DNA from: a virus
Taxonomy: Duplodnaviria; Heunggongvirae; Uroviricota; Caudoviricetes
Length of the DNA stretch: 11,413 bases
Virus record (IMG/VR): IMGVR_UViG_2568526681_000003
Strand: one strand, 5' to 3'
Positions within the stretch are counted from its first letter, which is position 1. Each line of letters begins with the position of its first letter. This document shows positions 6,001-9,000 of the stretch, piece by piece. Position numbers: made by a program.

Positions 6001-9000
6001 CGGCAGGCTTTGAGAAAAGCATTCTGTCCGGTTGTCGCTTCCGGCACGGCGTGCTCGCGCGGTTTCAATGCGGCATCGTCTACGCGAACACCGGGAAAAT
6101 CTGGCGGCAGCGGGTCAACATAACGAGCGGGCTTCTTATTCAACCATTGCTCAATCTCGGCGCGTCGGCAATGAATCGCGTCGCCGGGCTGGATGACTTG
6201 CCGCAACCCAGTGTCAGAGCGCTGTTTTTGTTTCTTCGGTTGAACACCGTGCAGCGTTCGCCACTCCCGCAAGGTCATCGCGGAGCCATCTGCATTGTAA
6301 TAAAACTCTTCGGTCTTTGTGTTGTATGCCGCCTTAACGGGTTTACGCTTTACAGGGCATATCTTGGAACGTCGAATAACAATCCCGTCAGCGATCATTT
6401 GCTGTACATCTGCGTTCGCAGTATTGAGCGGGTCAGCGTCGGCAGCTTGCACAAGCAGGCGGCGTAGGTTTGTTGGCATGGTGAAATCTCCAGAAAATAG
6501 GGGTAGGTATTAGCTCAGGTTGGGGCGGTGGTACAGTTGCGGCAGACTCTCTGCCCTTATAGAGGTTTTCATGTCGGCAACAGTGTCAGTGTCTTTATCT
6601 GCCTTAATAGTCACTTTCAAAATCGGAGAGTTTGTCTCGCTTCGGGAGTTATTCTTTCTCCTTAGTAGATACTTTCATTAGGTCAATTTTTAACCACCTC
6701 CTCGCTAAGCCTTACTGAGCCTGGGCTGGCAATACTTAACAACGCGATTTTTGTCGGTCAAAAGCGGGAAAGTAATGCTCTATATCTCCTTATTAGTAGC
6801 CTTTAAAATTAAAAATATAAGTTACTGATATCAATAGATAATTATGAAAGTGACTATAGTGATAAGTATCGCTAGATACGCAGAGCGAGCGCGGCGCAGC
6901 CGAAACAAGCGAGCGCCGAACGGATGACGGATGGCAGACCGTAGGACTGACAGACGGCAGACAGTGAAGACAGTAGGACAGGTGACAGACAGTAGACCGT
7001 GACGGCGTGCCATAGCTGGCAGTAGCACAGCAGGCAGTAAGACCGATGACCAACGGCTAAGACCTGAAAGGAAACGAACAAGGAAGATGATTGAATGCTA
7101 CAGAAATGAATTGAAGATGTTATGAAGAATACCGTACCGATATCAGGATAAGATTGAATACAGAAGTAATACCGATACAGAGTACCGTCCCACTACACAA
7201 CCCCGCCGCGTTGACCGCCCGGCAAGCACGGTTGCGTGGAGGGCCGAGCATCAGCAGCGGACGCAGGCCGATGAATGAGCCGAAGGCGAATGAAAGCGGA
7301 CTAGCGGACGCGAGAAGCGTAGCCAGTGGTGAGCGTGAAGCGATACACTGATTAGGAGATGGGGATGTAGGGGAAGAACCCTTTTTTGTACATGCATATA
7401 AAATGCAGCTTTAAAGCAAGCCAAGCAGCACCAGCCCGCGTCTCGTCTGGCTTTGTAGATGGACAACACAGCCTTTGATCCCTTCCCCTGCCCCATCCCT
7501 CGAATTGTTCAGTGATAAATCACATTCACAATCTGATCTTGATGCTCATCGTCTGGCACGGCTAAAGCCCCGCCACCTCTTCACATCAAGAGCCGCAAGT
7601 GATACGAAATACATTATAAATCATAGCATTAAGACATCACGCATAACATAACCCTCTGAAATAAATACAAAAGCTGTAGGTCATCCATCACCCACAGCCC
7701 AGTAACGGCCAGTCGTAGCACCTCGTTCGCTTGTAGGTCATCATCCCTCGCCCTTGTTCCAGTGGCGTTTAACGGTGCTCACGCTAACGCCGAGACGCTT
7801 CGCTACCTTCGATTGAGACAGCCCCTCACTCCGCAGCTCCTGCACCTTTTGAGTGGTGTCGGTGGCTTCCTTGCGTCCCAGCTTAACGCCATTGGCTTTC
7901 GCCTTCTCCAGCCCGTCCAGCGTCCTCTCACGGATACGGTTTCGCTCGAACTCAGCAAAAGCTCCAAACATCTGGCGGATTAGCTTGCCCTCAGATGAAG
8001 TCAGATCACGCGCTGGCAGGTCAAGCGACACCACCTTCACGCCGCGTTCTAGCAGCATGTCGATGGTCTGCTGTACGTCGATGTTGTCACGCCCCAGCCT
8101 GTCCAGTTTCAGCACGACAAGCTGATCTCCCGCTTCCAGCTTGTGCTCAACCATCGCCCGAAACTTAGGGCGCTGCATAGCCTGAACACTACCGGAAATG
8201 TCCTCGCTGATTACCCGGCTTTCAGGCACCTTGTACCCGGCACGCTCAATAGCCAGCACCTGATTCTGCGTATCCTGCTCGCGTGTTGAAACGCGGCAGT
8301 AGATAAAAGTCCTCATGGTTCACCTCACCCGTCTGGTATCACAAAACGGTAGCATCATTTCATTGGTGGTATCATTAAGTCAAACCCTAAATTAATGACA
8401 CCAGATAGTAATCACTCAGACAGGTAGCAAGAATCGAACGATTGATGACACTAAAGCCAAAACAATAACGACAGCCAAGAGAAGCGCCAAGCATCAACGC
8501 AAAGTGCTTTAACAGTGGAGATTCAGGAGTGATTTAGCGTTTCAAGAGAAGAATAACCCTAACCCACAGCCTCACGGTCAGAACATGAAACAGGGTCATA
8601 AACGCCACAGAGGAAGGCAAATCGATATACAGCCCGCCCAGCCTTCGGCTGGGAGAGGCGCACGGGGGAAGTTGAAGCCTTAACCGTCGAGGGAGGGGCA
8701 ACCATAAACGTGCAATTTTTCAAGCCGGGGATTCAGTTATAGGCTAACGGTAGAATGCGGCTTGATACGGGGAGTGTTCACGCATCTGGTACAAATACCT
8801 AACTTCGTGAGCAACTGCCCCATATAGGCCACATCTGGCAAGTTTTGAGGTTATATAATTTACCATTCACGCTTTTACTTAATTGCAATCGGCGCGGATG
8901 GGATTGCTGTCAAAGAAAGAACCCGCATTTTGAAGTCTTCATACTGTTCCCCCTCACGCAATGAAAGTTCAGTTAAAGAATAGAAACGGTCGGTTGATGG

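Follow-up and report, generated by a model that had tools for sequence, protein, structure and literature searches.

The DNA described here is a stretch of 11,413 nucleotides from the viral record IMGVR_UViG_2568526681_000003 (Caudoviricetes). It carries a gene for a small serine recombinase and, directly upstream of this gene, a compact array of repeated motifs, and the two are read below as a probable resolvase and its recombination site, res. The whole stretch is termed the window, and coordinates refer to it unless another locus is named; all of the support is computational. The recombinase gene and its array belong to a 14.8-kb island at leuX (locus L001, 8613–23418), which has a 31-bp direct repeat of the tRNA-Leu 3′ end at both bounds. 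Upstream of the recombinase gene, six half-sites with the core GGTRKCA lie within the 120 bp from 8334 to 8453, and they can be grouped into three sub-sites. The features of this region are:

7741–8316, minus strand: gene for a small serine recombinase of the resolvase type, 191 aa (Pfam)
8334–8345: gene-proximal half-site of predicted site III, TGGTATCACAAA, in direct repeat, with cores starting 13 bp apart
8347–8359: distal half-site of predicted site III, CGGTAGCATCATT, oriented as 8334–8345 and 8367–8378 (repeat finder)
8354–8383, minus strand: putative sigma-70-like promoter of the recombinase gene, TTGACT (8383–8378), 18 nt, AATGAT (8359–8354), with TG before the −10
8367–8403: predicted site II (accessory), a 37-bp inverted repeat of TGGTATCATTAA, 13 nt and TTAATGACACCA
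8422–8453: site I (predicted crossover), distal to the gene, a 32-bp imperfect inverted repeat AGGTAGCAAGAATCG-AA-CGATTGATGACACTA

No open reading frame (ORF) of at least 50 aa overlaps 8317–8533. At site II, the reverse complement of TTAATGACACCA (8392–8403) is TGGTGTCATTAA, which matches TGGTATCATTAA (8367–8378) at 11 of 12 positions. The spacer of this site holds the −35 hexamer together with an A-tract/TAGGGT motif that is conserved in the family. The pseudo-dyad of site I is the AA at 8437–8438, with CG beside it at both 8435–8436 and 8439–8440, and the reverse complement of 8442–8453 is TAGTGTCATCAA. In the window, the centers of sites I and II are 52.5 bp apart. An earlier, sequence-only reading of this DNA had proposed a res-like array here, and the coordinates and sequences that it quoted within 8334–8453 are all correct on re-reading. 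The near-perfect inverted pair at 8367–8378 and 8392–8403, which it gave as an 11/12 match with a 13-bp spacer, was found independently by a repeat finder (92% complementary, 13-nt gap), and the recurrence of GGTAGCA at 8348–8354 and 8423–8429 was confirmed.

The window is 99.9% identical to Escherichia coli A16, from whose RefSeq record it differs by 8 substitutions and 1 indel. Two of these differences (8372 and 8401) fall in the half-site cores of site II, which read GGTATCA and GGTGTCA in the window and GGTAGCA and GATGTCA in A16. The others are found at 5260 and, as five substitutions and the indel, within the repeat-rich interval 6832–6934.

The 191-aa protein has the N-terminal catalytic domain and C-terminal helix-turn-helix by which small serine recombinases are recognized, matching Pfam Resolvase (PF00239, 8.3e-37) and HTH_7 (PF02796, 2.8e-8). 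Its catalytic residues Y6, R8, S10, D72, R73 and R76 align with Y6, R8, S10, D67, R68 and R71 of gamma-delta resolvase; the last three are arranged as D72-R73-x-x-R76, and all are invariant in the family alignment. The closest solved structures are those of gamma-delta (5e-23) and Tn3 resolvase (8e-22), followed by Gin (2e-16) and then Sin (2.7e-9), and identity to Tn3/gamma-delta resolvase is about 35%. In the literature, residues R2, R32, K54 and E56 are named as the regulatory (“2-3 prime”, R) interface of the Tn3/gamma-delta enzymes. By alignment, these correspond to R2, R34, K59 and E61 of the window protein. In the alignment of relatives with 65–97% identity to it, R2, R34 and E61 do not vary, while position 59 holds K, Q or R. 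The recognition helix, ..TVKRHWNK, is likewise invariant among the aligned relatives. The family is found in Vibrio, Photobacterium, Shewanella, Aeromonas, Halomonas, Pantoea and other hosts, and databases name its members “recombinase family protein” or, misleadingly, “Pin-like invertase”.

The array is conserved in this family. Eighty homologous loci were retrieved, and the 47 with at least 55% protein identity were analyzed for the array. About 50 homologous loci, with protein identities of 52–98%, show this arrangement at fixed spacing; they come from Vibrio, Shewanella, Aeromonas, enterics and plasmids of 4–9 kb, and the DNA between the half-sites is largely unconserved across the family. 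Of the 7-mers within 220 nt upstream of the gene, GGTATCA has the widest occurrence (41 of 48 sequences). Relative to the ATG, in loci at 55–98% protein identity, the half-sites are located at approximately −138 (>), −115 (<), −88 (>), −58 (<), −43 (<) and −28 (<), which gives the pattern > < / > < / < < for sites I, II and III. The spacings, counted between half-sites from core start to core start, are:

site I, between half-sites: 23 bp in 29 of 30 loci
site II, between half-sites: 28–30 bp
site III, between direct half-sites: 12–15 bp
site I center to site II center: 51.5–54 bp, mode 53.0
site II center to site III center: 38–40.5 bp

The density of the core is 25.7 per kb at −150 to −15, as against 0.66 per kb in the 12-kb flanks, which is a 39-fold enrichment over the 47 loci. 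The sequence-only reading had said that motif copies at a similar density in unrelated DNA would count against it; in these flanks the core is far sparser. Within the window itself the statistics depend on the motif chosen. The 12-mer TGGTRTCATTAA, with up to 2 mismatches, has 6 matches against 1.17 expected, a number reached in 0 of 200 shuffles of the window, and 4 of the 6 fall inside 8334–8453. For the bare core GGTRKCA, the window total of 8 is not significantly above the 5.2 expected, but 5 of the 8 copies lie within about 95 bp. That the repeats form a functionless chance cluster could draw on this non-significant 7-mer count and on the weakness of the distal pair in the window sequence. 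It is contradicted by the 12-mer statistics, by the family enrichment at fixed positions in dozens of diverged loci, and by the covariation of half-sites with the recognition helix described below. This explanation was rejected on the last two grounds together with the fixed spacing, and it is given almost no credence.

Site I stands out among the three sub-sites. Its family consensus is CTGGTATCAAcAAACATTCGTaTnTTGATACCAG, in which the central spacer is conserved. A 34-bp weight matrix for site I was run over 1.1 Mb and later 0.76 Mb of the loci, on both strands. It gives 34.4 bits in the window and at least 25 bits at −110 to −155 in 49 of 63 loci, many of which also served to build it; loci outside the training set (L031, L032, L036, L086–L094 and L098–L101) score 33–49 bits. 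Three properties make it the best candidate for the crossover, which likely takes place at the central AA/TT (8437–8438): an invariant spacing, a location distal to the gene like that in Tn3 and Tn501, and a conserved central spacer. Sites II and III are predicted to be accessory sub-sites. The pair at 8422–8433 and 8442–8453 had been noticed from the sequence and ranked as the second and weaker inverted pair. Its existence holds, but its rank does not, because this pair is the best-conserved sub-site of the family.

In six relatives (L038, L040, L042, L043, L048 and L050), helix 2 and the recognition helix contain ..LSI[SA].. and ..TVKRL.. in place of ..LSQS.. and ..TVKRHWNK. These six loci carry GGTTCA/AGCTCA inverted and direct repeats in an unchanged layout. 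Loci with the ..VKRHW.. helix (n = 41) average 4.0 cores of the GGTRKCA type and 0.27 of the alternative type, while those with ..VKRL.. (n = 6) have 0 and 5.0, respectively; the alternative-core pattern was derived from the same six loci in which it is counted, so this last count is descriptive. The ..TVKRL.. loci retain the site I center AAAnCATTCGTTTA at an unchanged offset from the ATG, and they also retain the site II motif AAAATAGGG. In one of them, L050, the half-sites lie 1 bp nearer the dyad on each side. The outer motif tracks the DNA-binding domain, while the center of site I, the expected contact of the catalytic domain and helix E, does not. The array is real and non-random, and its cognate protein is almost certainly the neighboring recombinase. 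In two other loci, L025 and L047, the left half-site is of the alternative type and is joined to a standard right half and standard sites, and L025 has an extra, fourth direct half-site.

The gene and the array also move together. In E. coli LD26-1 (L004, 4141–4930), the DNA from 7741 to about 8470 is replaced by an unrelated serine recombinase of 210 aa (26% identity) with a weak IS607-like N-terminal match. This replacement has upstream repeats of its own, with CAAAYGAGACAG present twice in direct orientation and once inverted. The limits of the swap are the stop codon and about 20 bp past site I, and so it comprises the gene and the array and nothing more. Because both are swapped as one unit, they are taken to be inherited together, as the following module:

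7741–8470: exchangeable module of recombinase ORF and res array (LD26-1 swap)

A regular expression for inverted core pairs and the site I matrix found no second res copy in the 14.8-kb island or in the 35 kb around it, in keeping with the failure of the sequence-only reading to find one in the window. The site I matrix also found no second site I in 0.76 Mb covering 63 loci, 6–9 kb on each side and both strands; three extra matches were artefacts of doubled circular plasmid sequences. When 5,426 E. coli genomes were searched with the 136-bp array by sensitive blastn, each genome that carries it had it at a single place. Because each element holds a single site I, resolution of multimers, in which the partner is the copy on the joined element, is favored over inversion.

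An alternative is that the enzyme is a DNA invertase or a deletion switch that recombines site I with a partner elsewhere, so that a segment, for example the variable defense cargo, is inverted or excised. PHROGs and several phage records do label the closest phage homologues (about 41% identity) “DNA invertase/PinR”, and variable cargo adjoins site I in E. coli and in Vibrio parahaemolyticus. The searches above speak against such a partner in the island, the surrounding 35 kb and the 63 loci. Moreover, site I is a 32-bp site accompanied by accessory sites and not a lone 26-bp site of the hix/gix type, R2 and other residues of Tn3/gamma-delta synaptosome assembly are present, and in Plesiomonas the island cargo lies on the opposite side of the gene. 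The preference for a resolvase over an invertase that had been expressed from the sequence is supported by the scores (5e-23 for gamma-delta as against 2e-16 for Gin) and by the lone 32-bp site I with its accessory half-sites. An invertase or switch is accordingly regarded as very unlikely.

The contexts in which the system occurs are consistent with multimer resolution. The same array with a 52–60% identical recombinase is found in plasmids of 4,136, 4,268 and 8,969 bp. The two smallest have only two other annotated genes each, which encode two hypothetical proteins in one and a replication initiator and an inovirus Gp2-type protein in the other. With so few other genes present, these plasmids leave little room for a role other than resolution. 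In Vibrio and Halomonas (L086–L090 and L098), the recombinase and res are found in islands within comM/yifB, a split Mg-chelatase gene, and these islands also encode a large serine recombinase that is presumed to be the integrase. Their cargo includes YafO, MqsRA, an Eco29kI restriction-modification system, Vsr and Pua-like/metallophosphatase genes. In Pantoea and Plesiomonas, the family recombinase adjoins tyrosine integrases. Across the family, island cargo consists of defense or toxin-antitoxin genes, and a Tn3-type transposase was never seen alongside; no transposase was found in the window’s island or in the neighborhoods of the homologues, where terminal repeats were not searched for. 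Since the leuX island has its own integrase, a resolvase-type role is open to the small recombinase. A study of pipolins has proposed that small resolvase-like recombinases, located beside a large integrase in yifB-integrated elements, handle circular replication intermediates.

The position of the promoter suggests that the recombinase may also regulate itself. The promoter is the sole promoter-like match in 8200–8900 (shuffle mean 0.6). Its −35 hexamer lies in the spacer of site II, the site II half-site 8367–8378 lies between the −35 and the −10, and the −10 AATGAT forms the inner part of the site III half-site 8347–8359. The overlap of the array with the −35 (TTGACT, 8383–8378), noted from the sequence at the outset, is thus confirmed and extends to the −10. 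TTGAC occurs at the equivalent place in enteric, Aeromonas and V. parahaemolyticus relatives and in the relatives of alternative specificity. Because the hexamers interleave with sites II and III, occupancy of the accessory sites should repress the recombinase promoter. Repression by resolvase at promoters embedded in res is established for Tn3; for the present system, autoregulation is inferred from the geometry.

These observations would also suit an array that acts as an operator only. The protein would then be a domesticated, recombination-inactive repressor that carries out no strand exchange and perhaps controls the neighboring cargo too. Besides the interleaving of promoter elements with half-sites, each genome has a single copy of the array, and resolvases are known repressors. 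Several features are difficult to explain in this way. The catalytic and R-interface residues, which a mere repressor would not need, vary little or not at all among relatives down to about 65% identity. Site I, which lies 55–85 bp upstream of the −35 and is unneeded for occlusion, is the most conserved sub-site, and its center is conserved even where the half-sites change. In addition, the system is present in tiny plasmids. A purely regulatory array is therefore considered decidedly unlikely.

Further observations concern the ends of homology between islands. When islands of differing cargo are compared, homology ends 0–2 nt from the outer edge of site I in KFu019-type E. coli (L003, about 4849, equivalent to window 8453) and likewise in three V. 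parahaemolyticus cargo variants (L086–L088, about 7866). In most E. coli islands, conserved non-coding DNA continues for a further 270–310 bp or so past site I, and homology breaks at about 8729, 8742 and 8764. In Shewanella insulae (L018, 5860–5900), the terminator hairpin downstream of purE-purK takes the place of the left half of site I, and the junction between chromosome and element lies exactly at the predicted crossover center (..TTTTTATGG|TTCGTATATTGATACCAG). No reciprocal half-site was found within 6.5 kb downstream in L018. A blast search of all retrieved loci for the other parent of the left flanks of L018, L025 and L047 was uninformative. Cargo swapping by crossover at site I was considered and kept as no more than an improbable reading, as the E. 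coli breakpoints are at about 8453 or about 270–310 bp beyond site I and not at 8437/8438.

It might be supposed from these junctions that site I serves mainly for exchange between elements, as a hot spot at which islands or plasmids swap the arm that bears the cargo, or for recombination with secondary chromosomal sites, with multimer resolution a secondary activity. The breakpoints at the outer edge of site I, the L018 junction and the hybrid-looking site I halves of L025 and L047 would all fit. However, most E. coli breakpoints fall well past site I and so are not tied to it, and an edge at a selected element is expected from purifying selection and ordinary recombination. Furthermore, topologically filtered resolvases disfavor intermolecular reactions, and only one clear breakpoint, that of L018, underlies the proposal. 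It is held to be unlikely. A milder version, in which site I would resolve multimers and besides this act as an exchange point for defense cargo and for secondary integration (arm swaps and chromosomal pseudo-sites), is given a similarly small chance; its hints are the ends of cargo homology at the edge of site I in two unrelated lineages, the L018 junction and the hybrid-looking halves. The breakpoints fit purifying selection on res together with one possible secondary-site event.

Comparison with known systems places this one closest to the Tn3/gamma-delta resolvases, with distinct features. As in those systems, which give the closest protein match, about 120 bp directly upstream of the gene hold six half-sites for three dimers, the accessory sites lie between the gene and the crossover-type site (the order of Tn3 and Tn501), and the centers of sites I and II are about 53 bp apart. 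In Tn3, this distance is the sum of 14, 22 and 17 bp, from a 28-bp site I, a 22-bp linker and a 34-bp site II. An A-tract in site II, a promoter within the accessory sites and the R-interface residues are also shared. On the other hand, the Tn3 sub-sites are inverted repeats of 28, 34 and 25 bp, while here a 32-bp and a 37-bp inverted repeat are followed by a direct repeat. The central dinucleotide is AA/TT and varies in the family, as opposed to TA in Tn3/gamma-delta; the half-site is GGTATCA, as opposed to TGTCYR; and the system here occurs without a Tn3-family transposon and with no transposase nearby.

The Res/res system of SGI1, compared here by its published description, is similar in that an island-borne resolvase has a three-sub-site res directly upstream. 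It has been shown experimentally that SGI1 Res binds res and clears multimers of the excised, replicating island. In both islands the DNA beside res holds cargo, as In104 is inserted in the res of SGI1. The SGI1 res has the Tn3-like dimensions of 28, 30 and 25 bp with spacers of 22 and 2 bp, and SGI1 is mobilized by IncA/C plasmids, whereas the present island encodes a capsid gene.

Sin resH and the six site of the beta recombinase share with this array accessory half-sites in direct repeat, an R-type interface and a role in plasmid multimer resolution. In the Sin and beta systems, direct accessory half-sites are bound head-to-tail by a dimer. Sin differs in having a single accessory site and in placing HU/IHF between sites I and II, an interval that is filled here by the inverted site II; its protein match is also weaker (E 2.7e-9). 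No IHF consensus was seen in the array by eye. The Hin/Gin/Cin/Pin invertases have the same protein superfamily and size, and the hix crossover site has a central AA, as does site I here. The invertases, however, use two lone 26-bp inverted sites and a Fis-bound enhancer, compared with one 32-bp site and four accessory half-sites here, and the present protein has resolvase-type R-interface residues and the lower score to Gin already given.

By these criteria, drawn from sequence comparison, the gene and array are best described as a resolvase–res system with its own sub-site layout that is a strict member of neither the Tn3 nor the Sin/beta sub-type. The proposal of a res-like multi-site array has held in its position and in a layout kept across the family, but the arrangement is strictly neither Tn3-type nor Sin-type, as the third sub-site is a direct repeat. 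Because of this direct repeat and the different site sizes, the synaptic architecture cannot simply be transferred from Tn3 or Sin.

The interpretation to which this evidence leads, with which every computational test run agrees and which is considered quite probable, is that 8334–8453 is the res of the adjacent recombinase, at which three dimers would assemble for multimer resolution and self-repression. These two are most likely the functions of the system. In the proposed mechanism, three recombinase dimers would bind the six GGTRKCA half-sites, and the enzyme would cut and rejoin at AA/TT 8437–8438 in site I. The source of duplicate res copies would be a dimer or concatemer formed when the excised 14.8-kb leuX island replicates or, in relatives, one of a small plasmid. 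Directly repeated res copies on one supercoiled molecule would then pair through the accessory dimers, which would interact through R2/R34/K59/E61 and activate the site I dimers, so that the multimer is converted to monomers. The bound accessory sites would also repress the recombinase’s own promoter. The L018 junction, located at the predicted center of site I, was counted in favor of this interpretation.

Several points weigh against it. Binding, the position of cleavage, directionality and repression are all deduced and not observed, and the promoter is a consensus match only, with many Vibrio relatives having no clear −35 at that place. The outermost half-site of site I in the window is mismatched at a conserved G (TAGTGTCA), the half-site cores are 1–2 bp farther from the dyad than in gamma-delta site I, and the site sizes of 32 and 37 bp with a direct third site are unlike those of every res compared. 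Episomal replication of the island is deduced only from the helicase and the iteron-like region described below. Finally, a resolvase would oppose packaging if the island is a satellite that is packaged from concatemers.

The remainder of the window and island provides the context for this system. In addition to the features below, the island encodes a tyrosine integrase at its far end, a YafO toxin, endonuclease VII-like and HNH nucleases, and small genes of unknown function. The features of the window outside the module are:

465–1460: major head protein
2036–2731: scaffold-like protein
4635–6479: RecQ-like helicase
6480–7740: non-coding stretch of 1.26 kb between helicase and recombinase, without a convincing ORF
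8473–8764: conserved non-coding block beyond site I, with no Rfam match
8875–10802: cargo slot between recombinase and leuX, with an XcyI-family restriction endonuclease and an N4/N6 methyltransferase

Genes for a portal, a protease or a terminase were not recognized in the island. The island looks like a phage satellite and is not placed in a described family. It is present in about 629 of 5,426 complete E. coli genomes, and 148 genomes carry the recombinase region of the window. No near-identical DNA was found in phages, and the single match in the plasmid collection is a mislabelled chromosome. No prior description of the island, the recombinase family or its sites was found in the literature, where there are general precedents only: the res of SGI1, the resolvase-like recombinases of pipolins, and marine satellites with a tyrosine integrase and a serine recombinase.

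The stretch at 6480–7740 has a strong A-over-T skew (up to 0.37), iteron-like direct repeats (TGACAGACGGCAGAC..) at 6925–7002, and a 17-nt inverted repeat at 6607–6623 and 6841–6857, and it is kept at 89–93% in other E. coli islands. It is a candidate for a replication origin or a non-coding RNA region. An Rfam scan of the whole window returned one sub-threshold, snoRNA-like chance match and nothing else. The block at 8473–8764 contains a GC-rich hairpin, CCCAGCCTTCGGCTGGG, at about 8630–8646. This block is kept in E. coli islands under either recombinase allele, is partly deleted in KFu019, and is also found in Trabulsiella.

Variable cargo sits beside res, which marks this DNA as a cargo slot. 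Its content varies by strain, and elsewhere it holds AbiJ-NTD4, DUF3800 or hypothetical genes. Because strains hold differing cargo there, the interval from res to leuX can be regarded as a hot spot for defense genes. If site I does serve as an exchange point, the resolvase would drive rapid turnover of the cargo beside it.

The system described here is an uncharacterized example of a well-known type and introduces no new principle. Its interest lies in the family, which is common on small integrative defense islands, satellite-like elements and small plasmids of Gammaproteobacteria and which has been labelled vaguely or as an invertase. For this family, the analysis gives a testable map consisting of a crossover site, two accessory sites and a promoter. 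With its inverted-inverted-direct layout and a Tn3-like distance of 53 bp from site I to site II, the array is a natural intermediate linking the architecture of Tn3 to that of Sin. In addition, the pairing of ..KRHW.. with GGTATCA and of ..KRL.. with GGTTCA/AGCTCA may offer a ready-made specificity switch. Lastly, the presence of such a system supports the idea that these islands pass time as replicating circles in need of multimer resolution.

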